From: Escherichia phage vB_EcoM_ECO78
Reading direction: 5' to 3' (one strand)
DNA: 64,000 nt
Sequence record: PP526941.1
Both the position numbers and the translations under genes were made by a program. How positions within the stretch are numbered: the first letter of the stretch is position 1; each line of letters starts with the position of its first letter. The notes beneath the pieces were generated by a model. It was given only the letters and a program-made list of their open reading frames with translations, ran no database searches and was not told where the DNA came from. Shown here in pieces: positions 21,168 through 40,072 of this stretch.

Positions 21168-22262
21168 ATGGCAATTGTTAAAGAAATAACTACTGATTTA
21201 ATTAAAAAGTCCGGTGAGAAAATTTCAGCCGGACAGAGTACTAAATCAGAAGTAGGAACTAAAACATACACTGCCCAGTTTCCAACTGGGCGTGCTAGTG
21301 GTAATGACACTACAGGGGACTTCCAGGTAACAGATCTATATAAGAATGGATTATTATTTACTGCATACAATATGTCATCTAGGGATTCTGGAAGTCTTAG
21401 ATCAATGAGATCTAACTACTCTTCTTCATCTTCGAGTATTTTAAGTACAGCTAGAAACACTATTAGTAGTACAGTATCAAAACTATCAAATGGATTAATA
21501 TCAAATAATAATTCAGGAACAATAAGTAAAGCTCCTGTCGCAAACATTCTTTTACCGAGATCTAAATCTGATGTTGACACATCATCACATAGATTTAATG
21601 ATGTTCAAGAAAGCCTTATCAGCAGAGGCGGAGGTACTGCTACTGGTGTGCTAAGTAATATTGCTTCAACCGCAGTATTTGGGGCACTGGAAAGTATAAC
21701 ACAAGGTATAATGGCTGATAATAATGAGCAGATTTATACGACAGCCAGAAGTATGTACGGTGGTGCTGAAAATAGAACTAAAGTGTTTACATGGGATTTG
21801 ACTCCACGTTCAACAGAAGATTTAATGGCTATTATTAATATCTATCAGTATTTTAACTATTTTTCTTATGGTGAAACAGGTAAATCTCAATATGCTGCTG
21901 AAATAAAGGGGTATTTAGATGATTGGTATCGTTCTACATTAATTGAACCTTTATCTCCGGAAGACGCAGCTAAAAATAAAACACTATTTGAGAAAATGAC
22001 AGCAAGTTTAACGAACGTTCTTGTAGTTTCAAACCCGACAATTTGGATGGTGAAAAACTTTGGTGCAACATCTAAGTTTGATGGAAAAACGGAAATATTT
22101 GGTCCATGCCAAATACAGAGCATTAGATTTGATAAAACACCTAATGGTAACTTTAACGGATTAGCTATTGCTCCAAACCTCCCTAGTACATTTACTCTCG
22201 AGATTACTATGAGAGAAATTATCACGTTAAACCGTGCTTCTTTATATGCGGGGACTTTTTAA
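21168..22262 (+). CDS. 48: baseplate tail-tube cap protein gp48
   Basis: 364 aa; synteny. Confidence 0.88.
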   Translation: MAIVKEITTDLIKKSGEKISAGQSTKSEVGTKTYTAQFPTGRASGNDTTGDFQVTDLYKNGLLFTAYNMSSRDSGSLRSMRSNYSSSSSSILSTARNTISSTVSKLSNGLISNNNSGTISKAPVANILLPRSKSDVDTSSHRFNDVQESLISRGGGTATGVLSNIASTAVFGALESITQGIMADNNEQIYTTARSMYGGAENRTKVFTWDLTPRSTEDLMAIINIYQYFNYFSYGETGKSQYAAEIKGYLDDWYRSTLIEPLSPEDAAKNKTLFEKMTASLTNVLVVSNPTIWMVKNFGATSKFDGKTEIFGPCQIQSIRFDKTPNGNFNGLAIAPNLPSTFTLEITMREIITLNRASLYAGTF

Positions 22263-23227
22263 TGTATTCTTTAGAGGAATTTAATAATCAAGCAATAAAT
22301 GCAGATTTCCAACGTAATAATATGTTTAGCTGCGTTTTTGCAACAACTCCATCAACTAAAAGCTCTTCGTTGATAAGTTCAATTAGCAACTTTTCTTATA
22401 ATAACTTGGGCCTAAATTCAGATTGGTTAGGATTAACTCAAGGTGATATTAATCAGGGAATTACCACGCTAATTACAGCTGGCACACAAAAACTGATAAG
22501 AAAATCAGGGGTTAGTAAATATCTTATTGGTGCCATGAGTCAACGTACAGTTCAAAGTTTATTAGGCTCATTTACAGTTGGTACATATTTAATTGACTTC
22601 TTTAACATGGCATATAACTCATCTGGATTGATGATATACTCTGTAAAAATGCCAGAGAATAGATTATCCTATGAAACTGACTGGAACTATAATTCTCCTA
22701 ATATTCGTATAACTGGGAGAGAATTAGACCCTTTGGTTATTTCATTTAGAATGGATTCAGAAGCTTGTAACTATCGTGCAATGCAAGACTGGGTTAACTC
22801 TGTTCAAGACCCAGTAACTGGACTGCGTGCTTTGCCACAAGATGTCGAGGCAGATATTCAGGTTAATCTTCATTCTCGCAATGGATTACCTCATACTGCG
22901 GTGATGTTCACCGGATGCATTCCAATATCAGTGAGCGCTCCTGAGTTATCATATGATGGAGATAACCAAATAACTACATTTGATGTTACTTTTGCGTACA
23001 GAGTGATGCAGGCTGGAGCGGTTGATAGGCAAGCTGCGCTTGAATGGCTTGAATCTGCTGCTATAAATGGTATTCAAAGCGTTCTCGGAAATAGTGGAGG
23101 TGTTACTGGACTATCTAATTCGCTTTCACGACTTAGTAGATTAGGAGGAACTGCAGGAAGCATTTCAAACATTAACACTATGACAGGAATTGTCAATTCG
23201 CAGAGTAAAATATTAGGAGCAATATAA
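22262..23227 (+). CDS. 54: baseplate tail-tube initiator gp54
   Basis: 321 aa; synteny; ATGA-coupled to gene 48. Confidence 0.88.
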   Translation: MYSLEEFNNQAINADFQRNNMFSCVFATTPSTKSSSLISSISNFSYNNLGLNSDWLGLTQGDINQGITTLITAGTQKLIRKSGVSKYLIGAMSQRTVQSLLGSFTVGTYLIDFFNMAYNSSGLMIYSVKMPENRLSYETDWNYNSPNIRITGRELDPLVISFRMDSEACNYRAMQDWVNSVQDPVTGLRALPQDVEADIQVNLHSRNGLPHTAVMFTGCIPISVSAPELSYDGDNQITTFDVTFAYRVMQAGAVDRQAALEWLESAAINGIQSVLGNSGGVTGLSNSLSRLSRLGGTAGSISNINTMTGIVNSQSKILGAI

Positions 23228-23231
23228 CAAT

Positions 23232-23249
23232 GGGGACCTTTCGGTCCCC
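23232..23249. terminator. bidirectional rho-independent terminator between gene 54 and the convergent alt-region genes
   Basis: GGGGACC-UUUC-GGUCCCC followed by AUAUUUUUAUUU. Confidence 0.65.
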
Positions 23250-23255
23250 ATATTT

Positions 23256-23546
23256 TTATTTACGGAATGAAATGAAAGCAGCAACTGAAGCAACTAAACT
23301 GTCTTCAATATAAACTTCAATTTTTACCGGAGCTTCTGACTCAAATTTACCTGTTACTACACCCTGAAAAATACTTTCAGTCTGTTCTGGTTTTGAAAAA
23401 TTTTCAGAAGGAAAAATTCCGAACTTTTTATCTGTTCCAAAAATTTTGATAAATTCATCGTAAACTGCTTCATTAAAAGCATTATCAGCAGGAATAACGC
23501 CTTCAACTACAAGTTCTTGACCTAAAAAGCGTAAAGAAGATTTCAT
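23256..23546 (-). CDS. hypothetical protein downstream of alt
   Basis: 96-aa ORF with GAGGA SD, driven by an early-type promoter/leader cassette. Confidence 0.55.
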   Translation of the reverse strand: MKSSLRFLGQELVVEGVIPADNAFNEAVYDEFIKIFGTDKKFGIFPSENFSKPEQTESIFQGVVTGKFESEAPVKIEVYIEDSLVASVAAFISFRK

Positions 23547-23577
23547 TTTGTGTTCCTCATGTTATGTCAGTAAGACT

Positions 23578-23607
23578 ACTATAACACAACACGAGGGACT
23601 TGTAAAC
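23578..23607 (-). promoter_or_regulatory. T4 early-type promoter (copy 1 of a duplicated promoter/leader cassette)
   Basis: Minus strand: GTTTACA (-35), 17-18 nt spacer, TATAGT (-10), leader ...CAUAACAUGAGGA to ATG; near-identical to 38401-38454. Confidence 0.55.
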
Positions 23608-25664
23608 TACATTTTGAACTTTTTAGACATTCCGTTGATGTTAACCAAAGAAGCTAAGATTTGAGAAACTTCATTTTCCTCTTCTTTTGATTCTTCTACA
23701 AGGAATTGATTAAATCCAGCCATTGGACGAACTTCACCAGTTTCCATTAGATGGTCGCCATCATATACCGATTCCTCTAATTGTTCAGAAGGAGGAACGA
23801 TTGTACCTTCGATTAGATACTTGTTATAAGCAGTTTCTTTCATAAAGTACGTACTTACTTTATTAATCTTCAGTAAAATTCCACGTGGTAGAATAACTTC
23901 AGCTTCTGATGGAAATCCTGATAAATGACCTGGAACGATAACTTTGATTCGTTCAGCTCCTTTAATTACCATACCCACGCTAGTTTCAGCATCTTCATTA
24001 GCATATGTAGAATGACTACCCATATGCATCAAATCTTCTGCATCAACGGAACCTTCTCCTTCACCAGAAAATACTGCGCCGGAATCATCTAGAGCCATAT
24101 AGTTTTTACCATGCTCGCCGAAGATATTTGGTTTAAGTGATGTTGATACGAAGTTCTTGAAATAGAACATTTTATTTTCAATGTTATGACGCAAAGTTTT
24201 AAAGGTAACTTCTTGTCCGCGATAAAGCGTAGTTCCTGGAGGAAGAACTGATCCTTTGGCAAAGGCAGAATCAAGCGTCTCAATATGTTTAATAGCTCGT
24301 TCCATATATTCTTCACGGGTAGAATCTGGTTTACCCAAAAGGAACGAGTTCATTTCAACATATGAATCTGCACAATAATCTTCAATTACATCAGATTCAG
24401 CTTGAGTTAATCCTTTTGGAGTTACTTCAGTACTTGCATATTCATACGCCTGAGCGGCAGATTCATTAATCAATTTATAAATGCCATTCATTACAAATTG
24501 AATAATAGCTGTCTTTTCATCTGGCGTGGCTTTAGAACCTTTAACTAAATCATTAATAATTTTCTTAATAACATCAAAGCTATTAGAAATATTAATGTCA
24601 GCAAGATCGCTTAAAATTTTATCAGTTTTATAATCAAAGAATTCTTTATTCTTTAAATATTCTTGAGAACCTTGATATGTTATATCGCTCTGCAACTTGA
24701 TAGATGGATCACGTAAACGTGCATGGGCTAATGCAATATGATTTCGGAAGTTTTCTAGTTCATAATCGCTAGATTTAAAACGAGAAGCACTTCTCATACC
24801 ACCAATAGCTCCTTTGTTGAAGTTTGAACCAATCTGAATAACGCCAGAGTTCATCGGACCTTCTGCTTTATATACCGGAACCTTAGATTCAAACTCTTGA
24901 TATTTCTTAGCAGCGAAGCTATCACCCTGAAGTGAAGCATCAACAGTAGAATATTGAGCTTGTGCTGCTAATCGACGACTAATTTTAGTTTTCTGAATAA
25001 CAGCTTGATCAGTGCGCTTATCATTTTCTAAAGCAATAGAAGCAGCAACAGCGACAGCTTTAGGAACAGCATTACCTGTTTTAACGTCTACATAAACATC
25101 ACCAACCTTTGATTCAACTTTTGTGAATAACTCAGTTGAAATAGGAGGTACACCTGGAATGTCTTCTAAATTGGCATTTTTACGGTAAACCATAATATAT
25201 GCATACTTTTTATCATAGTCCCAGATTTCCTTTAAAAGAACATAACGACCTGCTCCTTTAGTACGTACTAAACGGTCAGCAATAACTTGCATTTGACGAG
25301 CTGCGCCATTTGTTTTACTTTTTAGTACGCGGAATAAGCATGCATCAATTTTATACTGTTTCATTGTTTGAAGAGCAGTATCAAAAACAGCATTAATGAC
25401 ACCAATTGGATTTCCACCCAAGTTTTTAAGCTTAACCAGCGATAGTTTCTCATTAACACCTATCATTACGATATGCATCATTTTATCGCCTGGCTTAACG
25501 TTTTTATTTGTATCACCGCCAGAGGTGTATGTACAAAATCTAAATCCAGGAAGCACGCTTTCTTCACCAGCTTGAATAGCAAAAATTTGAGGTATTTTAT
25601 GCTTAGGATTTAAGTTAACAACCGGCGCCGAAGCGCCGTCAAATAATTCTGTAATAAGTTCCAT
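23607..25664 (-). CDS. Alt-like ADP-ribosyltransferase, downstream paralogue
   Basis: 685 aa; N-terminus MELITELFDGASAPVVNLNPKHKIPQIF parallels the upstream Alt; C-terminal R-S-E ART signature (YRGQ...FVSTSL...SEAEVILPRG). Confidence 0.8.
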   Translation of the reverse strand: MELITELFDGASAPVVNLNPKHKIPQIFAIQAGEESVLPGFRFCTYTSGGDTNKNVKPGDKMMHIVMIGVNEKLSLVKLKNLGGNPIGVINAVFDTALQTMKQYKIDACLFRVLKSKTNGAARQMQVIADRLVRTKGAGRYVLLKEIWDYDKKYAYIMVYRKNANLEDIPGVPPISTELFTKVESKVGDVYVDVKTGNAVPKAVAVAASIALENDKRTDQAVIQKTKISRRLAAQAQYSTVDASLQGDSFAAKKYQEFESKVPVYKAEGPMNSGVIQIGSNFNKGAIGGMRSASRFKSSDYELENFRNHIALAHARLRDPSIKLQSDITYQGSQEYLKNKEFFDYKTDKILSDLADINISNSFDVIKKIINDLVKGSKATPDEKTAIIQFVMNGIYKLINESAAQAYEYASTEVTPKGLTQAESDVIEDYCADSYVEMNSFLLGKPDSTREEYMERAIKHIETLDSAFAKGSVLPPGTTLYRGQEVTFKTLRHNIENKMFYFKNFVSTSLKPNIFGEHGKNYMALDDSGAVFSGEGEGSVDAEDLMHMGSHSTYANEDAETSVGMVIKGAERIKVIVPGHLSGFPSEAEVILPRGILLKINKVSTYFMKETAYNKYLIEGTIVPPSEQLEESVYDGDHLMETGEVRPMAGFNQFLVEESKEEENEVSQILASLVNINGMSKKFKM

Positions 25665-25667
25665 GAT

Positions 25668-27764
25668 TTATCCTTGAACGAACTTGTAAGGCATGTTTGT
25701 AATATCTATGCAAGACGCAATAATTCCAAGAGATGATTCTACTTTTTGTTTAACATTTGATGAAACAAACGATGCAAAGTCAACTCTGTCTTCTATTTCA
25801 ATATCACCTGTCATTGCAACTACTTCACCGGTTTCCATTAGACGGTCACCGTCATAAATTACTGATTCGGTGAGTTCTTCCGTAGTCATAACTTCAGCTT
25901 GAATGAGTTTTGTATTATTAGATGTTGTTCCGTCATTATTAGAAGCATCAGTTATTTTATTAACTTTGACCATCAATCCGCGTGGTAGAATAACTTCAGC
26001 TTCTGTTGCTATTCCGAGACTTCCTGGATATACAACATTAACTTTATGAGCTCCATCAATTGCCCATCCTATTTGAACTTTAACGTATTCAGGATTTTCT
26101 TTATACGCTCTTATTTCGTTTGGATTAATAGTTATTCCTTCTTCATTTTTATCAACTGTCAATTCATTACGAGCTTCTGGTTCTAAAAGACCAATACCAG
26201 CATGCGTAATTCCAAAACGTCCAAAAATGATAGGAGTTAAAGAAGTAGATACAAAATTTCTGAAATAAAACACTTTATTTTTAACTAGTGCTTCGTATAT
26301 AGGAGCAGTCATGCTTTGAGCACGATAAACTGTAATGCCTTCTGGTATACGGTCACCGTTTTCAAAAGCTGAATCTAAGTTATTTATAGCAGATTCAATT
26401 TCTTTTTCACTCATTACATCATATCGTTCTGGATTGTAGCGACCCAAAAGAAGATTATTGATGTCAGTATATCCTGAACCGCAATACTCTCTAATGCCGC
26501 GCTTTTGTGATGGAGTATATTTAGAACCATCACGGGCAATAGTAATATCAATCATTGGACCTGCACCAATTCCAGAAAAGCTATAAATCATTCGTTTGAG
26601 GAATTTAGTTTTTGCTGCGTTCCAGGAATTTTTAGTTATTTCTTCCCAGACTTCATCTGGCTGTCCTTTACGGGTTTTATTATGTTTATCAAGCCAATTA
26701 TCTTTATATTCTTCAAAGAATTTATTAACAGCTGCTGCGTATTTCTCTAAACATTTTATTGAAGTAGTTGGTTCATTTTTAATCGCATTAAGAATTACAT
26801 CTTTAATTTTTTCAGAAACTTCATCAACCTCACTTTTTGAAAAGAATTTATAGTCATAGTGAAGTTCATTTGCAGTTCCTTCAGCAATAATTTTTGCTGC
26901 CTTAGTTTTAGAAGCTAATGAATTAATTCCAAGCTTCATTTCTTCTGCTTCGGGAATTAAAGGAGCGGTAGCAGGTTTATTAAAATTAGCTGCGGTAGAT
27001 TCATACTTCTGGAATAATTCACTTTCAAATCTAGAAGATTCTAATGATTGACTTTGCGCAATTGCTCTACGGGAAATTTTAACTTTAACAATAACAGCTT
27101 GGTCAGAACGTTTATCATTTTCTTGTGCAATAGATGCTGCAATTGCCTCATTTTTAGTTACTTGAGCTCCAGTATCTTTATTGATATAAACATCACCGAC
27201 CTTCGATTCAACTTTAGTAAAGAGCTCGGTACTAATTTCCGGAACTCCTGGAATGTCTTCTAGTGATACATTTTTGCGATGTATAAGAATATATGCATAC
27301 TTTTTATCATAATCCCAGAGTTCCTTAAGAAGGACGTATCTGCCACCTGAACGACTACGGATGAGCCTATCAGCAATAACTTGAATTTGTCGAGCTTGGC
27401 CAGCAGTTTTAGACTTAAGAATACGAAGCATACAAGCATCAATTTTATACTGACGCATAGTTTGCATTGCAACAGTAAAAACTGAATTGATATAATTAAT
27501 TGGGCTTGGTCCAAGACCTTTTAATTTAGCAATTGAACCTTTAGCAGTTAATGTAAAAGGAACAATATGCATCATTTTATCGCCCATCTTTAAATCACGA
27601 TTAGTATCACCTCCAGATGTATAGGTACATAAACGAAAGCCTGGTTGTTCAATTGCATCATCAACATGAACTGAAAAAATTTGCGGTATTTTCTTCTTTG
27701 GATTTAAGTTTGTAATCGGAAGAGTAGTATCTTCGTCAAATAATTCTGTAATGAGTTCCATCAT
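25668..27764 (-). CDS. alt: NAD-protein ADP-ribosyltransferase Alt (head-packaged)
   Basis: 698 aa (697 if started at the second ATG, 27761); N-terminal capsid-targeting region MELITELFDEDTT...; C-terminal ART motifs YRAQ...FVSTSL...TEAEVILPRG; late promoter upstream. Confidence 0.88.
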   Translation of the reverse strand: MMELITELFDEDTTLPITNLNPKKKIPQIFSVHVDDAIEQPGFRLCTYTSGGDTNRDLKMGDKMMHIVPFTLTAKGSIAKLKGLGPSPINYINSVFTVAMQTMRQYKIDACMLRILKSKTAGQARQIQVIADRLIRSRSGGRYVLLKELWDYDKKYAYILIHRKNVSLEDIPGVPEISTELFTKVESKVGDVYINKDTGAQVTKNEAIAASIAQENDKRSDQAVIVKVKISRRAIAQSQSLESSRFESELFQKYESTAANFNKPATAPLIPEAEEMKLGINSLASKTKAAKIIAEGTANELHYDYKFFSKSEVDEVSEKIKDVILNAIKNEPTTSIKCLEKYAAAVNKFFEEYKDNWLDKHNKTRKGQPDEVWEEITKNSWNAAKTKFLKRMIYSFSGIGAGPMIDITIARDGSKYTPSQKRGIREYCGSGYTDINNLLLGRYNPERYDVMSEKEIESAINNLDSAFENGDRIPEGITVYRAQSMTAPIYEALVKNKVFYFRNFVSTSLTPIIFGRFGITHAGIGLLEPEARNELTVDKNEEGITINPNEIRAYKENPEYVKVQIGWAIDGAHKVNVVYPGSLGIATEAEVILPRGLMVKVNKITDASNNDGTTSNNTKLIQAEVMTTEELTESVIYDGDRLMETGEVVAMTGDIEIEDRVDFASFVSSNVKQKVESSLGIIASCIDITNMPYKFVQG

Positions 27765-27784
27765 ATCCTCTCTAGTGTTTATTC

Positions 27785-27792
27785 TATTTATA
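27785..27792 (-). promoter_or_regulatory. T4-type late promoter (TATAAATA on minus strand) for alt
   Basis: Plus-strand TATTTATA 21 nt upstream of the alt ATG, directly after a terminator hairpin. Confidence 0.55.
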
Positions 27793-27797
27793 AAATT

Positions 27798-27815
27798 AAA
27801 GGCCCGAAGGCCTTT
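27798..27815 (-). terminator. rho-independent terminator separating the gene 30 early unit from alt
   Basis: AAAGGCC-CGAA-GGCCUUU hairpin followed on the minus strand by AAUUUUAUAAAUAG. Confidence 0.5.
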
Positions 27816-28002
27816 AATAATCTATTGGTAAGAGAGTACGATATATTTCAAACTTTGGACCTTTTTCATAGGCATCAAATGTTTCTGTGAATTTATTATA
27901 AGCATATGCATCTATAAATTCAATCATGATTTGTGATACAGAAGTAGAAACATCTCCACCTTCTTTTTGAGCCACGACAATTGTTTCTAAGTAAGCTTTC
28001 AT
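27814..28002 (-). CDS. small hypothetical protein ATGA-coupled to gene 30
   Basis: 62-aa ORF; its ATG overlaps the ligase TGA stop. Confidence 0.45.
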   Translation of the reverse strand: MKAYLETIVVAQKEGGDVSTSVSQIMIEFIDAYAYNKFTETFDAYEKGPKFEIYRTLLPIDY

Positions 28003-29462
28003 AAACCAGTTACCTCATGAAAATCACCAAATACATCTTCGAATGTATTAGCTTTAGTTTTATCTTCACGCAAACGAATCGCAATTGGAAGAAATAATTT
28101 AACGTAATCGGTGCGGCCATCAGATTTTAACCAACCGTTGCATTCGCACTCTAGAATTTTTCCAATATAATAATTTTGGTTTTCCATAATGCGAGTACGG
28201 TCAAGTTCATGCGATTTTACACCGGCTTTATCTTTTAAGCCTGAACCAGCATTTACTTTAATTTTTCCACACTCTGACTCAAGAATAAATCCACCCGCTT
28301 TAGTAGGGTCTTTACGGTGAGGATAAATTCCTACAATTTTTAAATCAACATCAATTACTTCTTTAAATTTATAGAGATTTTTTGAACGAGCATTTTCCCA
28401 TAATCCATCGATATTTTTGAGAATAATACCTTCAAGACCTTGGTCAATATACTTTTTATAAATTACCTTAGCTTCATCCAGGTTATTTACTACTTGGTTT
28501 TCAATTAAAATTACTTTATCATAGCCTGATGTCATTTGTTCTAGTTTAGAAAAACGTACATCATATTTCAAACGAAATGCTGGAAGACCGTATATTTCTA
28601 CCAACGGTACATAATCCCAGACCTGAAACTTCATGCATTGTGCTTCTTTTTCTGAAATAGTTCCCTTTAAAGATTTATTGGCGATGCCATTAGATGCAGT
28701 ACGTGATTCAGCTACTTCTGTGAAGTCTTTAGCTTTACTGTTTTCAGGGTGAGCATCAAAAAGAAAATCTAGGCCTTCTGGTTCCTTTTCAACTTGCTCA
28801 TGGTATACCAATTCGCCATCAATTAACACACCTTCTGGATGAATCTGGCGGGCTTCAGCAGTCATTTTGATTAATTCTTCCTTAAGAAGATCTAATCCTA
28901 GATATTCATTACCAGCTCGTGATAAAAGACGAACATCATCTAATTCATCGCCTCGGACTTCAGCAAAACACCGAGCTCCATCAGCTTTTAACTGGGCAAA
29001 GGCTGGAAATTTGATATTCTTATTAATGCCTTTTTCATCATAAGAACTTGCTAGCATTTGAGGTTGTTCAGGAATTAAACCTGGCCAAACTTTGTTTGCA
29101 ATAGATACTGAAGCACCACATTCAAGGTCTCGCATCATCACTCGACGCAAAACTTCAACATCATCTTTTTTACCGTCAGTAATATAACCTACTAATTCCT
29201 CAATTGCCGCATTTCCAGTCAATTTCCGAGTAGCTAACGTGAATTCAATGAAGTCAAGCATATCGGTAAGAGTCAACATTCCAAAACTCTGGGTAGCAAT
29301 ACCAGGTTTAGGCCATTTCTTGATATAATATTGTAACCCACGAGAATAAGTCAGACGATATACTCGTTTAAGCAATTCATTATCTTTATTCTTTTCAAGA
29401 ATTGCTTGCTTCTGCTTAGTTGAACCAATAGATGCTATTTCGTTCAGAATTTTAAGAATCAT
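27999..29462 (-). CDS. 30: ATP-dependent DNA ligase gp30
   Basis: 487 aa; adenylation motif KADG (AQLKADGARCF); sequence recognised as essentially the T4 DNA ligase. Confidence 0.96.
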   Translation of the reverse strand: MILKILNEIASIGSTKQKQAILEKNKDNELLKRVYRLTYSRGLQYYIKKWPKPGIATQSFGMLTLTDMLDFIEFTLATRKLTGNAAIEELVGYITDGKKDDVEVLRRVMMRDLECGASVSIANKVWPGLIPEQPQMLASSYDEKGINKNIKFPAFAQLKADGARCFAEVRGDELDDVRLLSRAGNEYLGLDLLKEELIKMTAEARQIHPEGVLIDGELVYHEQVEKEPEGLDFLFDAHPENSKAKDFTEVAESRTASNGIANKSLKGTISEKEAQCMKFQVWDYVPLVEIYGLPAFRLKYDVRFSKLEQMTSGYDKVILIENQVVNNLDEAKVIYKKYIDQGLEGIILKNIDGLWENARSKNLYKFKEVIDVDLKIVGIYPHRKDPTKAGGFILESECGKIKVNAGSGLKDKAGVKSHELDRTRIMENQNYYIGKILECECNGWLKSDGRTDYVKLFLPIAIRLREDKTKANTFEDVFGDFHEVTGL

Positions 29463-29728
29463 TGCTCATCCTTTAGAGTTTGGTTTACAGCTCTATTATA
29501 AATCAATTCATCATTAAGCTCAGTCAAAGACCTATGATATGTAGTTCTAACTTTATTTCCTTGCATCCAATGCTTGACGTAAATGAAACCTTGCTCTACA
29601 CATTTTTTAAAAATTCGTTCGTCTTTTTGAGCTCGGAATTCTGGATTGCATCTAAAAAATTGATTTACGTGACCATAATCACGTGTAGTATTACCTTCAT
29701 TTTCATAAATAGTGTGAACAACAAACAT
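29459..29728 (-). CDS. hypothetical protein (position of T4 30.1)
   Basis: 89 aa; ATGA-coupled upstream of gene 30. Confidence 0.55.
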   Translation of the reverse strand: MFVVHTIYENEGNTTRDYGHVNQFFRCNPEFRAQKDERIFKKCVEQGFIYVKHWMQGNKVRTTYHRSLTELNDELIYNRAVNQTLKDEQ

Positions 29729-30582
29729 TAGAATGCTCCTTGGAAAATATTATCACCACTACCACTAGTAAGTCTATTAAAATACCCTGCATCGCCGGGC
29801 TTAATATAACTCCACGTATGGAATGGATGCATCTGGTGTGAGTGCGTATAATATGGATGATATGGATTATAAGGATTAAATCCAGGAGTTCTCCAGGTAG
29901 TGTTCCAGCGAAAAGAATCGTTTTTAATCATCTTCTCAATTACATCTTTTATAGCTTTTTCACTATCAAAATTTTCTTTATTTTCCTTCAATGGAAAAAG
30001 CTTATTCTCTACATCATTCCATGTATAAACTCGCTGTGCAGTTTTTGGAATATTGTCACGCTCTCCTCGAGCCATCCAATACACAGGAACACGTAATATT
30101 TCACTCGCATGATCGCAGTGGTGAGCGAGATCGTCAATATAACAAATTACGTTATATTTCTCTTTTGCCTTTTTGAACAACTCTTCTTTTGAAGAATCAT
30201 GACCACACATCATTACTTCCGAGAAGGCACCAGGAAAAAGAGCATTCAAATTAAATTGACGATTCAACAAAGCGTCAATAGAATCACCCAATGCTGTAAC
30301 AGCTACAAAATTATAATCTTCTTTTAATTTGTTAATTACACACAGGGCATCTTTATATGGAGACAAATAACGAATAAAATCTGATCGATTGTATTTTTCA
30401 ATTAGCTTAACGCCAAGTTCTTCATCACAATTAAAGAGTTTACCTGGAGAAATAAATTTCTCATCCTGGATCATTTTTAAAATATGTTCCAACGGAAGAT
30501 TATATTTCTGAGCAAAATAAGGAAGGCCTGATTGCCAGCTTAAACATACTCCATCAATATCAGTTAAAATAGTAGGCTTCAT
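29728..30582 (-). CDS. HAD-superfamily hydrolase-like protein (position of T4 30.2)
   Basis: 284 aa; N-terminal HAD motif I ILTDIDGVCL; family assignment from motif only. Confidence 0.6.
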   Translation of the reverse strand: MKPTILTDIDGVCLSWQSGLPYFAQKYNLPLEHILKMIQDEKFISPGKLFNCDEELGVKLIEKYNRSDFIRYLSPYKDALCVINKLKEDYNFVAVTALGDSIDALLNRQFNLNALFPGAFSEVMMCGHDSSKEELFKKAKEKYNVICYIDDLAHHCDHASEILRVPVYWMARGERDNIPKTAQRVYTWNDVENKLFPLKENKENFDSEKAIKDVIEKMIKNDSFRWNTTWRTPGFNPYNPYHPYYTHSHQMHPFHTWSYIKPGDAGYFNRLTSGSGDNIFQGAF

Positions 30583-31043
30583 AGAGAGTCTCTTAATAGG
30601 TTTAACACATCAATAAATTCAGCTTCGGTTAGTATTGTATCATCTTTTGTTAGACCACTAGCCATGCTGTGCTTCAAAACTTTTCCTTTCGAGGCTTGTA
30701 ATGCATCACGAAAGCCCTTGTTTTGGATCGCTGCTTCAAAATATGCATTTGTGTATAATTCTTTCCACGCCGGGGAGTATCTTGAAAATGGAACTCCAAG
30801 CCAGAAGAGGGTCCCACGGTCCTGAGCTCTAGCATAAGCTCGTCCAGCTTGTTGGGCGGCAAGCCCGGATAACCCAAATATACGTCTTTGCTGTTCAACA
30901 TTTTTCACTTTACATCCTTGAAGGAATCCTTCGAGACCTCCAAATTGAATGCCATCCATAACGAAAGGCCATTGGGCGAAATTACTTAATGCACATGATG
31001 GCCATCTAAAATTACTTCTAATCTCTAACTCAGACATTTTCAA
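30579..31043 (-). CDS. NADAR (YbiA-like) domain protein (position of T4 30.3)
   Basis: 154 aa; resemblance to the NADAR/DUF1768 family (WPSCALSNFAQ...FxxxEx pattern); family assignment is by recollection, not search. Confidence 0.55.
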   Translation of the reverse strand: MKMSELEIRSNFRWPSCALSNFAQWPFVMDGIQFGGLEGFLQGCKVKNVEQQRRIFGLSGLAAQQAGRAYARAQDRGTLFWLGVPFSRYSPAWKELYTNAYFEAAIQNKGFRDALQASKGKVLKHSMASGLTKDDTILTEAEFIDVLNLLRDSL

Positions 31044-31236
31044 TGCTTATAATTTCAACATCAGCCCAATGACCATAGCAAGGAAGACGAAATTCAACTG
31101 GCCAGTTAGGGTCCTTTTCTAATATAATAGACTCAACTTGTGGTTCTTCGTGTTCATCAGTATACGGATTTTTATCTGTTACTTTATATGTGACCTTAAT
31201 GTACTGAATTCCAAAAATCTTATTAATTATATTCAT
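31030..31236 (-). CDS. hypothetical protein
   Basis: 68-aa ORF in the tightly packed 30.x block. Confidence 0.45.
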   Translation of the reverse strand: MNIINKIFGIQYIKVTYKVTDKNPYTDEHEEPQVESIILEKDPNWPVEFRLPCYGHWADVEIISIENV

Positions 31237-31430
31237 ACTAATTCCTTTAATCCGTAAATAGGAGATAATTCATCACCCATACGAAGGTCTTCATTTCCAT
31301 CTACCCAGGAAACAATATAAGCCTCTTTTATTTGAATACCACTCCATTTAAATGGAGATAGAACCTTAGAAATTAATCCAGGTATACCAACTCCCTTTAA
31401 TTCAACAGTTTGACCTAAAAAGAATTTCAT
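31233..31430 (-). CDS. hypothetical protein
   Basis: 65-aa ORF, ATGA-coupled. Confidence 0.45.
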   Translation of the reverse strand: MKFFLGQTVELKGVGIPGLISKVLSPFKWSGIQIKEAYIVSWVDGNEDLRMGDELSPIYGLKELV

Positions 31431-31717
31431 TAGAACCTCATCTGAAAACCGTGCGATTTAACATTACCTCCGCCAATATCAGAAATATTAATTTCACGCG
31501 CAATTGAAGGGTCAATGTCAATTTCACGATTGAGTTTAGTGATAGCTAAAGTATCGCGCCCATTTACAGTACGGAACTCTAAAGGACAAACCACATCAAC
31601 GTAGTTTTTAATCGATTCGCTAGTAGGTTGCAAATGTGCAGGAAGGTCTTTAGGTGCCTTTGAGAAAACCACTTCACAGAAATTTTTGCGGGTATCAAAA
31701 TAAGTAGTCATAAACAT
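31430..31717 (-). CDS. hypothetical protein
   Basis: 95-aa ORF; GAGGAAAA SD after an upstream hairpin. Confidence 0.5.
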   Translation of the reverse strand: MFMTTYFDTRKNFCEVVFSKAPKDLPAHLQPTSESIKNYVDVVCPLEFRTVNGRDTLAITKLNREIDIDPSIAREINISDIGGGNVKSHGFQMRF

Positions 31718-31733
31718 AACATTTTCCTCAATA

Positions 31734-31747
31734 GGGGCCGAAGCCCC
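31734..31747 (-). terminator. GC hairpin (GGGGC-UUCG-GCCCC) between two 30.x ORFs
   Basis: Inverted repeat read in sequence; weak U tract. Confidence 0.4.
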
Positions 31748-31757
31748 TCATTTATTT

Positions 31758-32123
31758 TTAAATATCAAATTCGTTAAGAACTACATCAAAGACTGCTTCC
31801 AAGTGCTCAGGTTTAGCTTTGTTACTCAGAATATGACGAATCCAAGTTTTAACTAAGAGTTTACGATTAACACCATTCCAGCAAGGATGAGTCCCTAAAT
31901 CGCGTTGACGAAAATCATCATCCAAAGCGATTTTGAAGTTGGAACCTTCCATTGTGATTGAAACCGTGATGCCATTTTCAAATCGCATATAAACGTAGTT
32001 AGGAGTCATATACTGTTCAATTTCGCATACTGATCCATTTTGATGTTTCCAAAGGCAAATAGTATCAATAGAACCTGCAATACCATTAGAAACATATTTA
32101 CGTTCAAAGTTAATGTAGTTCAT
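31758..32123 (-). CDS. hypothetical protein
   Basis: 121-aa ORF. Confidence 0.55.
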   Translation of the reverse strand: MNYINFERKYVSNGIAGSIDTICLWKHQNGSVCEIEQYMTPNYVYMRFENGITVSITMEGSNFKIALDDDFRQRDLGTHPCWNGVNRKLLVKTWIRHILSNKAKPEHLEAVFDVVLNEFDI

Positions 32124-32191
32124 TTTTATTCTCCGAGATGTTTAATTGCGGTACAGGTATATAATATCATATCCTGTACCAAAGTAAACAA

Positions 32192-32524
32192 TTATTTTAC
32201 TACTTTCCAGTGCTGCATGTCAAGTTTACCAACTTTTTTCATCTTCTCAATTAAGCGTTCTGCGCGTTGGCGAGCTGTAACATAATGCCATTCACCTAAT
32301 TCATTTTGTTCAATTTTTCCAACGATTACTGTATTCAATTCATAAATCCAACCAGTAAAGAAATTATGAACTTGAATTGTAAAGGTGAAATCTGTTCCCA
32401 TACCTTCTGTTGTTTCTACTTCAATAATATCACCTTCAACTGCCATTAAGAACCACATAGTTTCATCATATTTACCGTTGAAGCATTTAGTTTTAACTGC
32501 AGCGTTCAGATTAATTGTTTTCAT
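32192..32524 (-). CDS. hypothetical protein
   Basis: 110-aa ORF preceded by an early-type promoter and AAAGGAG SD. Confidence 0.55.
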   Translation of the reverse strand: MKTINLNAAVKTKCFNGKYDETMWFLMAVEGDIIEVETTEGMGTDFTFTIQVHNFFTGWIYELNTVIVGKIEQNELGEWHYVTARQRAERLIEKMKKVGKLDMQHWKVVK

Positions 32525-32551
32525 TTTATTCTCCTTTGTTTGTGTAAGATA

Positions 32552-32581
32552 ATACTATCACAAAGGAACCGTACTGTAAAC
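32552..32581 (-). promoter_or_regulatory. candidate T4 early-type promoter
   Basis: Minus strand GTTTAC, about 18-nt spacer, TAGTAT; lies directly downstream of a terminator hairpin. Confidence 0.4.
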
Positions 32582-32611
32582 AACTTTATGCAATCTTTGG
32601 AAAATAAAAAA

Positions 32612-32629
32612 GGACTCCCGAAGGAGTCC
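32612..32629 (-). terminator. rho-independent terminator
   Basis: GGACUCC-UUCG-GGAGUCC followed on the minus strand by UUUUUUAUUUU. Confidence 0.65.
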
Positions 32630-32634
32630 TCAAC

Positions 32635-32853
32635 TTATGCTTTCTGCTTACCAAAACGAGAAGCATCATCTCGAAGAACCGCACGTGCTCGACGCATGAT
32701 CTTCTCAACAGTTTGATTGATACGAGAGTTCGACCCACGCTTGTAGCCAGCGCGTTTAGAATCACCAACTTTCTTTTCAACTGCTTTCTTTGCTTTAGCT
32801 TGTTTTGCCATTATAAATTCTCTTTTAAATGAAAATGCAGGACTTATTGGCAT
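32635..32853 (-). CDS. small highly basic hypothetical protein
   Basis: 72-aa ORF (58 aa from the internal ATG); Lys/Arg-rich. Confidence 0.45.
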   Translation of the reverse strand: MPISPAFSFKREFIMAKQAKAKKAVEKKVGDSKRAGYKRGSNSRINQTVEKIMRRARAVLRDDASRFGKQKA

Positions 32854-32930
32854 TGCCTGCGCAAGCCCTCAAGGGGTACTTAGGTTTTGAATATTTACCG
32901 ACAGGATAACCATAAACCTCGTCAACATAA

Positions 32931-33179
32931 TTACTTCAGTGTTACCACAAAGTGACGAACTGCTTTTCGCGCAGCAGAAGCCAGAGGCTTAGCATATTTA
33001 AGTTCATCTTTTTCCTGAAGCTCAGCAGCTAATGCAGTTTGAGCAGGATTCAGATGTTTGAAATAACGCAGGATTTCAAGAGCTTCGGCTTCAACATCAA
33101 TAGATGCGCCATAGTTTTCGTGACCATTATTCCATGCGTTTCGTTGCAGTTCAAGAGCGTGTTGTAATTGTTTAATCAT
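32931..33179 (-). CDS. rIII: probable RIII lysis-inhibition accessory protein
   Basis: 82 aa, matching the T4 rIII length, and located beside gene 31; assignment by length and synteny. Confidence 0.5.
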   Translation of the reverse strand: MIKQLQHALELQRNAWNNGHENYGASIDVEAEALEILRYFKHLNPAQTALAAELQEKDELKYAKPLASAARKAVRHFVVTLK

Positions 33180-33326
33180 TTAAAAATTCTCGTTAGAGAT
33201 TAAAACTCGGTAGTCACGTTCTTCTGAATTTCATCTTCTTTCGACAGATCTCTCAGTTGTAGACTACCACATAGAATTGTTCGGTTAACTTATTATTCCG
33301 ACACCCAATTCATATTATTATTTATA

Positions 33327-33662
33327 TCACTTATAAAGACACGGAATAGCTTTATAGTGACAAGTAACGAATTTTTGTTTAATTTCTTTTGGCTGCTTAA
33401 GACCCAGAGCTACAAAAGGATGCGGAACATTTCGAATTTGACCAACTGGAAGAGAAGTCAAATCACCAACTTCGCAGAAACCTTCAGGAACATCAGGACC
33501 GACAGAGTGAACTACACACAGTTCAGGAACTTCACCTTGAACACGTTTACCAATAATAAGTCCTGATTCTGTAACTTCTTCATCACCGGCTTGTGCAGGT
33601 TCAGAAACTAAAATAACATATTCACCGACAGCACGAATTGGTAGCTGTTGTACTTCAGACAT
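33327..33662 (-). CDS. 31: co-chaperonin gp31 (GroES analogue for capsid folding)
   Basis: 111 aa; synteny near cd; N-terminus [18 protein letters not shown]. Confidence 0.85.
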
Positions 33663-33718
33663 CGTTTTTCCTTTTTGTTAACAGATGAATTAATAATAAC
33701 AAATAATTCTTAAAGCAT

Positions 33719-34027
33719 TTATTTACCGATAAATTGAAGCAAATGCTCAACTTTCATACCATTAACAGAAATCAATTTGTCAATAGAAAAACCTCGCCAT
33801 GCACCAAGTTCAACATCAAATACTGGAATCATGTCAGTAGATTCTTTCCGAGTAGATTCAGTCAATTTACCAGTTTGCATGGTTGGCATAAAGTCTGCAT
33901 CACGAGTACCTTTCATAGTACGAATAGTACCATCAGACTTTTCAAAAACTACGTTTGAAACACCCATGGACAATTTAGTTTTCAAAATTTCACGAATTGC
34001 TACTTTCTGTTCAGTTGTCAGTTTCAT
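33719..34027 (-). CDS. hypothetical protein
   Basis: 102-aa ORF between gene 31 and cd. Confidence 0.55.
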   Translation of the reverse strand: MKLTTEQKVAIREILKTKLSMGVSNVVFEKSDGTIRTMKGTRDADFMPTMQTGKLTESTRKESTDMIPVFDVELGAWRGFSIDKLISVNGMKVEHLLQFIGK

Positions 34028-34264
34028 TTATTTACCTATTACAGTTTTAATATGGGTTGTTCCACGTTCTTTAAGGGTGGAAAGCAATTTTTGGCATTTT
34101 TCTAAATCAGATTTCCAACTATACGGCCTATCAATACTAGTCCAATCAGTTTTATAATACTGTTTCCATTTAGAGAAAAAATATTTCTTATACTCTACAG
34201 CAAATGAAATGTTCTCGTTAGAATAAGAACTAATTGCTGTGAGCTGTACCAAACGAAATTTCAT
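34028..34264 (-). CDS. hypothetical protein
   Basis: 78-aa ORF, ATGA-coupled to cd. Confidence 0.5.
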   Translation of the reverse strand: MKFRLVQLTAISSYSNENISFAVEYKKYFFSKWKQYYKTDWTSIDRPYSWKSDLEKCQKLLSTLKERGTTHIKTVIGK

Positions 34265-34845
34265 TATTCACCACAGAATTCGTTGATATTTTCCCAGTTT
34301 AACTTATTCAAGTTTTTCTTAGGAACATTAAACACTTCAATACCTGCATTTCGCAGAATATCATCCCAACCAGGTTTATTTTTATCGTATGTTTCGCAAT
34401 AAACCAGCTTTTTAATTCCAGATTGAGCTATCGCTTTTGCGCAATCTGGACAAGGAGAAAGTGTTACATACATAGTAGCACCTTCAATAGAAGAACCATT
34501 TCGTGCAGCAAACAAAATTGCGTTTAGTTCAGCATGAATTTCATTTTTAGATGACCATTCCGAGTGAGCACTACGATGTTCTTTCGCCAAGACAAAACGA
34601 TCAGTTGAACCAAATGATACGCATTCAGGCTTATGACCTTGAATGATAGTATGTTTAGGCTTATTTAACAACCAACCTTGCTCAGCAGCATAATCACAAC
34701 AGTTCACACCCCCTGCGGGGGAACCATTATACCCAGTAGAAATAATACGTCCATTCTTTTCAATTACTGCTCCTACCTTCCAGGAGCAGCATTTTGATTC
34801 TTGTGATACTAAATATGCAATTTGAAGTACTGTACTCGCTTTCAT
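34264..34845 (-). CDS. cd: dCMP deaminase
   Basis: 193 aa; cytidine/deoxycytidylate deaminase zinc motifs HAELNAI and PCPDC. Confidence 0.92.
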   Translation of the reverse strand: MKASTVLQIAYLVSQESKCCSWKVGAVIEKNGRIISTGYNGSPAGGVNCCDYAAEQGWLLNKPKHTIIQGHKPECVSFGSTDRFVLAKEHRSAHSEWSSKNEIHAELNAILFAARNGSSIEGATMYVTLSPCPDCAKAIAQSGIKKLVYCETYDKNKPGWDDILRNAGIEVFNVPKKNLNKLNWENINEFCGE

Positions 34846-35180
34846 TTCATAATCACCAGATAAGCAGATTTAGCAGTTTCAACACGATAAATTTCGTGAC
34901 GAAGTTTAGTTATACTTTTAATAACAGAACTAATTATATTCTGCCCATCTTTAAAGCGGTTTTTCTTATCAATAAAAACTGCGCCAGTCATCTTTTTGTG
35001 AAGCTCAACTGGATACTTCGTCACAATAATAGCATCATACACAGAAGGATGAATACTATTCACCAGAGTATCATTCATTAAAGTTATTCTAATGAACTGT
35101 GCTGTTTCAGAATCAAGCGCTCTATGATCGCCAGTATCATTTTCAAGACAATTATCAATTATATCAGTTAAATTCATCAT
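34842..35180 (-). CDS. hypothetical protein
   Basis: 112-aa ORF. Confidence 0.5.
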   Translation of the reverse strand: MMNLTDIIDNCLENDTGDHRALDSETAQFIRITLMNDTLVNSIHPSVYDAIIVTKYPVELHKKMTGAVFIDKKNRFKDGQNIISSVIKSITKLRHEIYRVETAKSAYLVIMK

Positions 35181-35416
35181 AGTACGCCATACACCCTTTG
35201 TGCTTCAACTAATCCATCAAAATCCAGTTTAAGATGTGATATTTGATCGCCATCGCCTGGATTCACAATTACTAATACTGAACGAGGAGTTTCGTTAATA
35301 ACACGAACCGATGTTTCAGGAAATCGTTCAGAAACCTTATTTACCAATTCCTGTGCAAATAGCTTGACTTTTTCTTGGAATTCTTTAACAGTAATCGGTT
35401 TTTCACTTAGCAGCAT
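35177..35416 (-). CDS. hypothetical protein
   Basis: 79-aa ORF with GAGGAAAA SD, downstream of an early-type promoter. Confidence 0.5.
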   Translation of the reverse strand: MLLSEKPITVKEFQEKVKLFAQELVNKVSERFPETSVRVINETPRSVLVIVNPGDGDQISHLKLDFDGLVEAQRVYGVL

Positions 35417-35446
35417 TCTGTTTTCCTCATTTGTTTTGGTAGAGCT

Positions 35447-35476
35447 ATAATATCACAACTCTACCGTAAAGTAAAC
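35447..35476 (-). promoter_or_regulatory. candidate T4 early-type promoter
   Basis: Minus strand GTTTAC, 18-nt spacer, TATTAT. Confidence 0.4.
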
Positions 35477-35478
35477 TA

Positions 35479-35754
35479 TTAAATTGCTTTGAATTCTGCT
35501 GTCTGCGATTCAAAACGAATATCGCCTTTGATAACTAGCTCAGCATCAAGACCAAATACGACAATGATATGCGCGGAACCTGGATACAGTGTAATGGCAA
35601 TAGAATCCACCTGGTCTGGAAGCAAAGCGTTCAATACATGAGTCACTTGAGCATGGATTCGAAGCTCGGCTGCGTTATCAAGTTTTTCAAACATATTATT
35701 AGCGATAATTTGGCTAAACACTACTTCTACGATTTTAGAGTAAGTCGGAAACAT
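35479..35754 (-). CDS. hypothetical protein
   Basis: 91-aa ORF. Confidence 0.5.
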   Translation of the reverse strand: MFPTYSKIVEVVFSQIIANNMFEKLDNAAELRIHAQVTHVLNALLPDQVDSIAITLYPGSAHIIVVFGLDAELVIKGDIRFESQTAEFKAI

Positions 35755-35818
35755 ATTTACCTCACATAATTTTCTTCAAGACAATTAATAATATCTCAAG
35801 TTTCATGGTGCCAAGCCA

Positions 35819-37022
<1,204 letters not shown>

Positions 37023-37026
<4 letters not shown>

Positions 37027-37259
37027 TTATTTTTCTCAACCAATGATTGAATATAATCATGCAGGTCTTTAGATGCTTTGCCCCACTTATTTTGATATTC
37101 ATTTTTGAGATTAGCACGTGATTGAGCTAATAAAACATCATTAGTTGGAGGTAAAGATTCTAACCGCTGAATCTGGCGTCCATAAATCATTGCAGCCATC
37201 TCGGATTCATAAATCAATCCTTTGAGATGTTCAAATTGGTGCCATGAAATCATTTGCAT
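37023..37259 (-). CDS. hypothetical protein
   Basis: 78-aa ORF. Confidence 0.5.
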
Positions 37260-37549
37260 TTATCCTCTTTTAACTCTTGACGATAATAACATATCATAGT
37301 TTTCTGGTCATGTACATATCGTTTTACATCATTAAGCCAAATACGAAATTCCTGAGAATCTTCAAATGGCATACCGACCCAAGCTTTACCATCGATAACT
37401 TTAACTTGCCATGATAGTTTAGCTTCGTCATATGACTTTATTTGTACAGGCCAATTGGGATGAACTGTTTCTTTCTTTACTTCTAGAGGCTTTGTCGAAC
37501 AACCAACTAGAAGACCAATAGATAATATTACTGCTGATAGTTTAATCAT
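37250..37549 (-). CDS. outer-membrane spanin (o-spanin, Rz1-like lipoprotein; T4 pseT.2 equivalent)
   Basis: 99 aa; signal peptide with lipobox LLVGC; immediately downstream of and overlapping the i-spanin candidate. Confidence 0.65.
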   Translation of the reverse strand: MIKLSAVILSIGLLVGCSTKPLEVKKETVHPNWPVQIKSYDEAKLSWQVKVIDGKAWVGMPFEDSQEFRIWLNDVKRYVHDQKTMICYYRQELKEDKCK

Positions 37550-37899
37550 TTAGAAAGGTCCTGGATGTCTTCTGCGAACTTGTTGAAGGAGTTGTTGATT
37601 TGTTTTTCAACCAATCCTGGCTTATGAGCCACCACATCCGCCTTCTTTGCGTCTTTGCGCAGTTTTTCATTTTCACGCTCAATAGCAGCAATTGCCTCAC
37701 GATTTTTATTATTCATCGCATCAATATAATTATACTGAATTCGCAAATTATTTAATGCTAAGGCGTTTTCATTGGCTGTTTTTGTAATTTCAGTAACTGA
37801 TGTTTCTAATCTTTCTACCTTATTTTTTAAAATAATAGATGTTCCGCCAAATGCTATTACAAGTAATAGCAATCCAGCTGTAAAATTACTTACATGCAT
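37546..37899 (-). CDS. inner-membrane spanin (i-spanin, Rz-like; T4 pseT.3 equivalent)
   Basis: 117 aa; N-terminal transmembrane helix (AGLLLLVIAFGGTSIIL) followed by a predicted coiled coil. Confidence 0.65.
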   Translation of the reverse strand: MHVSNFTAGLLLLVIAFGGTSIILKNKVERLETSVTEITKTANENALALNNLRIQYNYIDAMNNKNREAIAAIERENEKLRKDAKKADVVAHKPGLVEKQINNSFNKFAEDIQDLSK

Positions 37900-38393: not shown

Positions 38394-38424
38394 CATAAAG
38401 TCCTCATGTTATGTCAGTAAGACT

Positions 38425-38454
38425 ACTATAACACAACACGATGGACTTGTAAAC
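38425..38454 (-). promoter_or_regulatory. T4 early-type promoter (copy 2 of the duplicated promoter/leader cassette)
   Basis: Minus strand GTTTACA, spacer, TATAGT, leader with GAGGA SD to the alc ATG; 53 of 54 nt identical to 23555-23607. Confidence 0.55.
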
Positions 38455-38457
38455 AGC

Positions 38458-40045
<1,588 letters not shown>

Positions 40046-40053
40046 AATAAAAT

Positions 40054-40067: not shown

Positions 40068-40072
40068 ACTCC

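Follow-up and report, generated by a model that had tools for sequence, protein, structure and literature searches.

Apart from canonical T4 early promoters, the closest described relatives of the element studied here are of two kinds. The first is the promoter-early stem-loop (PeSL) cassette, an intergenic unit with a sigma-70-like early promoter, for which the T4/PST consensus is TTTACW-N17-TAYWAT (PMC2839356, PMC4122927). The second is found at the T4 genes e, soc, 49 and I-TevI, where the ribosome-binding site is paired in the RNA started upstream, and the RNA of an internal promoter lacks the 5' strand and is translatable (PMC3014915). We looked at a 54-nucleotide (nt) early-promoter cassette that is present twice in a 64,000-nt stretch of DNA from Escherichia phage vB_EcoM_ECO78 (PP526941.1), hereafter the window. 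One copy lies between alt.-2 and alt.-3 and the other between rnlA and alc. The window is Tequatrovirus DNA, about 97.5% identical to RB32, ECML-134 and many other T4-like phages. The reading that we favour, with a probability of roughly 0.6, is that one cassette is present twice by gene conversion and that its hairpin gates translation according to the promoter from which the RNA originates. This hairpin between the promoter spacer and the ribosome-binding site, absent from a preliminary description of the locus, is its most informative feature. The two copies are as follows:

23554-23607, minus strand: cassette copy 1 (GTTTACA...GAGGA), between alt.-2 and alt.-3, scoring 25.7 bits with RNA model R1.
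38401-38454, minus strand: cassette copy 2, between rnlA and alc, scoring 26.8 bits with RNA model R1.

By pattern search, the 54-mer GTTTACAAGTCCCTCGTGTTGTGTTATAGTAGTCTTACTGACATAACATGAGGA has exactly two matches in the window, both on the minus strand (0 mismatches at 23554-23607 and 1 mismatch at 38401-38454), and none in 100 shuffles of the sequence. A repeat search independently recovered the pair as family D10, with 98% identity and a spacing of 14,847 nt. The lone difference between the copies is CCCTCG against CCATCG, with an A at 38442 in copy 2 where copy 1 has a C at 23595. The preliminary description had reported such a recurrence with a single mismatch about 15 kb away, and this is borne out, with 53 of 54 bases identical. 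Likewise, the -35 and -10 elements, the Shine-Dalgarno sequence (SD), the 96-amino-acid (aa) open reading frame and alc that it listed were all located as stated. Two of its details had to be corrected: copy 1 starts at 23554 and not at 23555 (its own text gives a length of 54 nt), and the gene upstream of copy 1 is not alt but alt.-2, a second full-length Alt paralog.

To place this identity against that of ordinary early promoters, cassettes were anchored at the -35 element, and five other early-type cassettes of the window were compared with each other or with the pair. These comparisons gave 16 to 37 identical positions out of 54 (mean 23.9), against 53 for the pair, indicating that the identity of the pair is not simple promoter consensus. 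Identity running past the hexamers is therefore as exceptional as had been noted, and the alternative named beforehand, the same extended identity at every early promoter, is ruled out by 53/54 against a maximum of 37/54. Beyond GTTTACA...GAGGA the flanks of the two copies are unrelated, and for this reason duplication of a larger segment was rejected. An assembly artefact was also rejected, since the pair is present in about 499 genomes.

In both copies, the promoter scan found TTTACA, a 17-nt spacer and the TG-extended element TGT-TATAGT, with 10 of 12 consensus positions matched:

23601-23606, minus strand: -35 element TTTACA of copy 1.
23578-23586, minus strand: extended -10 element TGT-TATAGT of copy 1, TG preceding the second hexamer.
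38448-38453, minus strand: -35 element TTTACA of copy 2.
38425-38433, minus strand: extended -10 element TGT-TATAGT of copy 2.

Transcription is predicted to start at about 23571 (an A) and at about 38418, given that starts usually lie 7 nt past the -10 element. Each -10 element is followed by an A/C-rich leader of about 25 nt, the ribosome-binding site GAGGA and, 4-8 nt further, the start codon. The 30 nt upstream of both promoters are AT-rich, and the two sites have the sequence features of a T4-type sigma-70 early promoter (Pe). Both downstream genes, alt.-3 and alc, are assigned to the early class in T4, for RNA as well as for protein (PMC9697503), and the T4 omics data class alt as late and the rnlA protein as late. 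The early timing of alt.-3 and alc fits the cassette as an autonomous early promoter.

The promoter spacer is complementary to the leader and the ribosome-binding site, so that the whole cassette is predicted to fold as one hairpin, which would explain why the identity extends past the hexamers. The predicted folds are as follows:

23552-23599, minus strand: hairpin of copy 1, with the promoter spacer as 5' arm (23583-23599) and a 3' arm (23552-23568) that includes GAGGA at 23554-23558.
38398-38448, minus strand: hairpin of copy 2, with the promoter spacer as 5' arm and a 3' arm (GACAUAACAUGA plus GGACUU) that covers GAGGA at 38401-38405.

Folding gave -23.3 kcal/mol for copy 1 (z = -3.5, and z = -5.1 against shuffled 5' arms) and -27.3 kcal/mol for copy 2 (z = -3.6). 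In both copies, the 3' arm consists of GACAUAACAUGAGGA and flanking bases, and the -10 element and the predicted start site sit in the hairpin loop. The A at 38442 that distinguishes copy 2 is an unpaired bulge in the predicted alc-copy fold, and the bulge of the alt.-3 copy falls within the same C run. Neither stem is followed by a U tract (the sequences there are UAUGAUGG and ACACAAAAUG), and a terminator scan of 22000-41000 flagged 14 terminator-like sites, none of them at 23552-23599 or 38398-38448. Judged by the need for a GC-rich stem and a U run, the element is not an intrinsic terminator. Weak attenuation, or attenuation that depends on a factor, may still occur at the stems. A known RNA family was rejected as its identity, Rfam having no match at gathering score anywhere in the window.

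The spacer-leader pairing covaries across T4-like phages. To look at this, alc loci were gathered from T4, RB69, IME08, Marfa, Melville, KaAlpha and 36 IMG/VR contigs. The same fold was found in 25 of 28 distinct alc cassettes of diverse T4-like phages despite wholly different arm sequences, as these examples illustrate:

alc cassette, 5' arm TCTCCATTTGGTT, 3' arm AACCAAATGGAGA.
alc cassette, 5' arm CCTCGTTTGTT, 3' arm AACAAACGAGG.
alc cassette, 5' arm AACCTCTCATTTT, 3' arm AAAATGAGAGGTT.
alc cassette, 5' arm TCCTCATTTCGTT, 3' arm AACGAAATGAGGA.

In a swap test with 14 clade representatives, which needs no alignment, spacers paired with their own leaders at a mean of -17.7 kcal/mol, against -9.4 with leaders taken from other clades, and the observed value was matched in 0 of 100,000 permutations. 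A register-consistent seed alignment had 96.6% of its cells paired and compensatory changes in 4 of 13 pairs. Its covariation score was reached by 0 of 500 shuffles, and pairing fell to 32-52% when the partner columns were shifted. The covariance model made from this seed recovers both window copies (26.8 and 25.7 bits) together with the alc cassettes of other clades. When 26 alc cassettes were aligned to the RNA model, 94.5% of cells were paired (62% in shuffles) and compensatory changes appeared in all 13 pairs, two figures to be read knowing that a model-guided alignment leans towards the model's own structure. That alignment had also taken in antisense and non-alc matches and was filtered to the 26 alc cassettes for the pair counts. 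With plain MAFFT, the 3' arms of 27 alc cassettes came out in mismatched registers, and that alignment was left out of these counts. Elsewhere in Tequatrovirus, the variants seen in alc copies either lie in the loop or a bulge or replace a G-U pair by an A-U pair.

Three VR25-like alc loci (L018, L019 and L041, at about 1400-1500) are built otherwise: they have no early promoter before alc and carry a GC-rich terminator-like hairpin (AAAAAGGGGTGTACAAGCCCCTTCTTT) instead. Their alc match spans about 740 nt against the usual 500 nt or so, which suggests an insertion.

Next, we wanted to follow the history of the duplication. The search for further copies that the preliminary description had proposed was run with blastn, using the 54-mer and a word size of 11. 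It returned 997 places in 499 phage records, two per Tequatrovirus genome, T4 included, and under these settings there was no third or diverged copy and none in other genera: two per genome, never three. In T4, the alc copy is identical to copy 1 of the window and the alt.-3 copy carries one G-to-A change, within the stem region. The duplication is old and fixed, being present in T4 and essentially every Tequatrovirus.

Outside Tequatrovirus, the alt.-3 cassettes sampled (IME08, VR5, VR25, Marfa, Melville, KaAlpha, L061 and RB69) have an early promoter with a short spacer-internal hairpin. Examples are CCACA-AGGA-TGTGG, GCAC-AAGGAA-GTGC and CATCC-ATGGAA-GGATG, with compensatory changes among them. 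The two cassette types of these outgroups compare as follows:

Outgroup alt.-3 cassettes: spacer-leader pairing -5 to -12.6 kcal/mol, local spacer hairpin -4.5 to -7.3 kcal/mol.
Outgroup alc cassettes except that of RB69: spacer-leader pairing -15 kcal/mol or lower, local spacer hairpin 0 to -2.3 kcal/mol.

A long hairpin covering or abutting the ribosome-binding site is found at alc in 12 of 14 clades and, outside Tequatrovirus, never at alt.-3. In their own right, the outgroup alt.-3 spacer hairpins (L004:1595-1655, L049, L055 and L058-L067) have stems of 4-6 base pairs and a conserved purine-rich loop, (A/T)(A/T)GGA(A/T).

At T4-type alt.-3, the sequences immediately flanking the cassette have their orthologues around the alt.-3 cassette of IME08 (upstream ...AARTTCAAAATGTAG, downstream ...ATGAAATCT), and it is the interior alone, -35 element through ribosome-binding site, that belongs to the alc type. 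Given these orthologous flanks around an alc-type interior, and the other type in the outgroups, the simplest reading is that the alc cassette overwrote the alt.-3 one, non-reciprocally, in the Tequatrovirus ancestor. The direction of transfer was judged by architecture and parsimony, since early cassettes all share 50-75% identity. The cassette would be native to the rnlA-alc junction, and gene conversion would have copied it over the original alt.-3 cassette, with endpoints in motifs common to all such cassettes, GTTTACA on one side and ATGAGGA on the other. After the transfer, the two copies would have drifted independently under purifying selection. The variants seen within Tequatrovirus are private to one copy; the two copies differ at 1 position in T4 and likewise in the window, and at as many as 4 in one genome. 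The L045/L011 pair, on separate contigs of the same metagenome, has 3 differences. In the L045 alt.-3 variant, an altered 5' arm extends the stem onto the alt.-3-specific GGAAC (-25.7 kcal/mol), which suggests selection for the hairpin at its new site.

Similar exchanges between the alc and alt.-3 loci appear to have occurred in VR5-like and RB69-like phages too. In VR5-like phages, alc and alt.-3 share 32 identical nt (ACCTTACACAAACATGAGGAGAACATTATGAA), from just past the -10 element through ATGAA, and the sister phages of this group have a different alc leader. In RB69, alc carries an alt.-3-type spacer hairpin and a leader (ATCAACAACAYGAGGA) common to its own alt.-3. The preliminary description had likened the repeat to PeSL cassettes that shuffle gene modules. 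The likeness holds for the promoter, the stem-loop, the ribosome-binding site and the recombination of cassettes, but not for the modules, as the cassette alone moved and no gene module changed. The same division came out of the comparison of flanks across relatives that it had suggested: the cassette interior was exchanged at alt.-3, and gene content is unchanged at the boundaries. Around both copies, the genes keep their order from T4 to Karamvirus and Gelderlandvirus, with no gene gain or loss of the PeSL kind, and where T4 has an alt.-1/alt.-2 remnant instead of a full alt.-2, the change is internal to the paralog and away from the cassette edge.

What the hairpin may do depends on the genes around it, which in the window are the following:

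23256-23546, minus strand: alt.-3, the 96-aa early gene served by copy 1.
23607-25664, minus strand: alt.-2, a full-length Alt-like ADP-ribosyltransferase paralog directly upstream of copy 1 and the presumed source of read-through transcript.
25668-27764, minus strand: alt, one gene further upstream of copy 1.
37890-38396, minus strand: alc, inhibitor of host transcription, served by copy 2; the second ATG (38393) is the start codon annotated in T4.
38458-39618, minus strand: rnlA (RNA ligase 1), directly upstream of copy 2 and the presumed source of read-through transcript.

The final base of the alt.-2 TAG stop is the G of GTTTACA in copy 1, and the rnlA TAA stop lies 3 nt upstream of copy 2. 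As no terminator-like site was found at or before either cassette, rnlA or alt/alt.-2 transcripts should run into alc or alt.-3. Such read-through RNA (from rnlA into alc, and late from alt/alt.-2 into alt.-3) would hold both arms, and the ribosome-binding site would be locked in the stem. RNA started at the cassette's own promoter would lack the 5' arm and be freely translated. If the hairpin forms in the infected cell, Alc and Alt.-3 synthesis would be tied to the immediate-early promoter and insulated from upstream middle and late transcription. The energies predicted for opening the ribosome-binding region, computed from SD-2 to AUG+13, are in line with this:

Read-through RNA: alt.-3 15 kcal/mol, alc 22 kcal/mol.
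RNA from the cassette's own promoter: alt.-3 4.6 kcal/mol, alc 5.6 kcal/mol.

These opening energies replaced the per-base unpaired probability, which is misleading for alt.-3 because of a weak alternative fold.

Several observations weigh against promoter-gated translation or against the history proposed for it. At alt.-3, GAGGA has a low per-base unpaired probability in own-promoter RNA too, the weak alternative fold (-4.5 kcal/mol) being responsible. In three clades (L023/L039 and L029), the 3' arm stops 2-5 nt short of the ribosome-binding site, meaning that its hiding is not universal, and the RB69-type and L040 alc cassettes have no long hairpin. Sequence identity cannot type the T4 cassette, the alc and alt.-3 types scoring 0.66 and 0.69 in global alignment of the interiors. 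The sense fold is favoured solely in Tequatrovirus (-24.4 kcal/mol against -15.4 for the antisense), the other clades having no consistent difference, so that the repeat may act at the DNA level. Finally, the PeSL authors read their stem-loops as terminators or attenuators, as was shown for one RB49 element (PMC2839356).

This last point leads to the strongest rival, which keeps the duplication history but has the hairpin affect the upstream RNA: it would terminate or attenuate that transcript, or would stabilise or process the 3' ends of rnlA and alt RNAs. Arbiol et al. (2010, PMC2839356) found that the RB49 PeSL stem-loop cuts downstream lacZ expression to the same degree as the rrnB T1 terminator does, and such a role would suit the three alc clades whose stem leaves the ribosome-binding site uncovered as well as the hairpins at 35421-35476 and 32161-32189, which enclose only the -10 element. 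A fall in lacZ, however, would not tell termination from a translation block if the construct included the ribosome-binding site. Moreover, the lack of a U tract and the result of the terminator scan go against termination at either site, and in T4 both alc RNA and Alc protein are made although the hairpin immediately precedes alc. The 3' arm and the ribosome-binding site match exactly in position in most clades, and the arm follows the changes of the site (for example GAGG, GGAG and GAGAGG). We regard an action on the upstream transcript as unlikely, if still a serious contender.

A second rival places the function in DNA: the inverted repeat would form a cruciform, or would serve as the operator of a dimeric protein by which the early promoter is modulated or switched off. 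The mechanism of T4 early promoter shut-off is not understood, the repeat brackets the -10 element, and several clades have no sense-strand stability advantage, all of which would agree with such a role. On the other hand, the arms have wholly different sequences from clade to clade and from promoter to promoter within a genome, yet stay complementary, which is the signature of base-pairing and not of a protein recognition site. In addition, the three G-U pairs of the Tequatrovirus stem are C-A mismatches on the opposite strand. A DNA element seems quite improbable to us.

Last and hardest to credit is independent convergence on an extended early-promoter/leader consensus, or continuing homogenisation for co-regulation, with no single old replacement: T4 early promoters do share consensus past the hexamers, and cassettes of different genes and genera are 50-75% identical, but the 53/54 identity includes loop and bulge positions against a background maximum of 37/54, alt.-3 and alc cassettes of other genera are just 48-70% identical (VR5 excepted) so that near-identity is not required, and the variants private to one copy speak against homogenisation.

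The promoter-in-hairpin design of the alc and alt.-3 cassettes recurs at other early promoters of the window and at other loci of related phages. In the window, three further cases were found, each with a spacer complementary to its own leader:

35421-35476, minus strand: early promoter hairpin at cd.3, z -3.5, enclosing only the -10 element.
32161-32189, minus strand: early promoter hairpin, z -4.0, enclosing only the -10 element.
32522-32581, minus strand: early promoter hairpin whose spacer pairs with the ribosome-binding site (UUCCUUUG / CAAAGGAG), z -2.7.

A spacer complementary to its own leader is not present at the promoters 50502-50531 and 62036-62065. As a tentative extension, to which we would give slightly less than even odds, promoter-gated translation may be a common device of immediate-early genes in T4-like phages, kept at alc by compensatory evolution across Tevenvirinae and rewired by cassette conversion (towards the alc type at alt.-3 in the Tequatrovirus ancestor, and the other way round at alc in RB69-like phages).

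A few features near the cassettes were seen along the way. In both leaders (23544-23560 and 38391-38407, minus strand), the AUG in cAUGAGGA opens a mini open reading frame of 4-5 codons that ends in a UGA overlapping the start codon of the main gene (AUGA), an arrangement that is probably a coincidence (a chance of about 1 in 12). Upstream of copy 1, alt and alt.-2 (23607-27764, minus strand) are tandem full-length paralogs with 71-80% DNA identity and a register offset of about 2094 nt, seen as repeat families D1, D3, D5, D8, D12 and D15, the last with 94% identity over 31 nt. In T4, just two short remnants (alt.-1 and alt.-2) remain, and the 3' end adjoining the cassette is the same as in the window phage. 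On the other side of alt.-3, between this gene and the converging gene 54, a perfect 9-base-pair GC-rich hairpin at 23230-23251 (ATGGGGACC-TTTC-GGTCCCCAT) has a terminator score on both strands and closes the alt.-3 transcription unit. Far from the cassettes, a coding repeat of 25-68 nt (51978-52903, families D4 and D11; 68-88% identical) lies inside a late structural gene; it translates roughly to ITPxxLxxRTATETRRGIAEIAT and is presumably a repeated protein motif.

The locus provides a clean, datable case, within the best-studied phage lineage, of a regulatory cassette that was copied from one conserved gene to another, and it supports the PeSL recombination idea with a case where the regulator alone moved. 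The covarying pairing of spacer and ribosome-binding site suggests a general principle, namely that immediate-early genes may be translationally insulated from upstream transcription. If true, this insulation would help explain why early protein synthesis stops while long transcripts continue. Since both copies are in T4, the gating idea is directly testable there. One of the two genes concerned has drawn attention for another reason: all T4 escape mutants against the CmdTAC defence system carry C-terminal extensions of Alt.-3 (PMC11618068). The practical value is modest and consists of better early promoter and leader annotation in T4-like genomes; the two 54-nt repeats can also mislead assembly or primer design.

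How, then, does the cassette compare with described systems? It resembles a canonical T4 Pe in its GTTTACA -35 element, 17-nt spacer, TGn-extended -10 element, AT-rich upstream region and early downstream genes. It differs in that ordinary pairs in the window share a loose consensus alone (37/54 or less), whereas this pair is 98% identical by descent.

By sequence-level criteria, the cassette is a member of the published PeSL class. It starts right past the upstream stop codon and has a ribosome-binding site and a start codon at its 3' edge. PeSL stem-loops lie between the -35 and -10 elements, overlap one of them or adjoin the promoter, and this one overlaps the -10 element. PeSL cassettes also recombine with one another; Arbiol et al. 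placed the junctions downstream of the -10 element and before the ribosome-binding site or ATG, and the VR5 junction, which lies past the -10 element but short of the start site, falls in this interval. Three differences stand out. The exchange described here moved the cassette alone between two conserved genes 15 kb apart, with no open reading frames gained or lost. The stems are AT-rich with G-U pairs and are not of the GGGG...CCCC kind. Lastly, 3' arm and ribosome-binding site coincide here, and no role in translation is discussed in the PeSL papers: the words 'translation', 'sequester' and 'ribosome' do not occur in the 2010 paper (PMC2839356). In the literature searched, we found no description of the alc/alt.-3 repeat, nor of the direction and recurrence of the exchange, the compensatory conservation of the hairpin or the gating of translation by promoter of origin. 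Because the class is known and both copies are present in the T4 reference genome, the novelty is limited.

With the hairpins of e, soc, 49 and I-TevI, the cassette shares a predicted pairing of the ribosome-binding site in read-through RNA, with the start site in the loop here. Those hairpins embed late (gp55) promoters and delay translation, in contrast to the sigma-70 early promoter embedded here. For this reason, the cassette would work like the e/soc/49/I-TevI set without being a member of it, and its modelled effect is the reverse of a delay, namely a restriction of translation to the immediate-early period.

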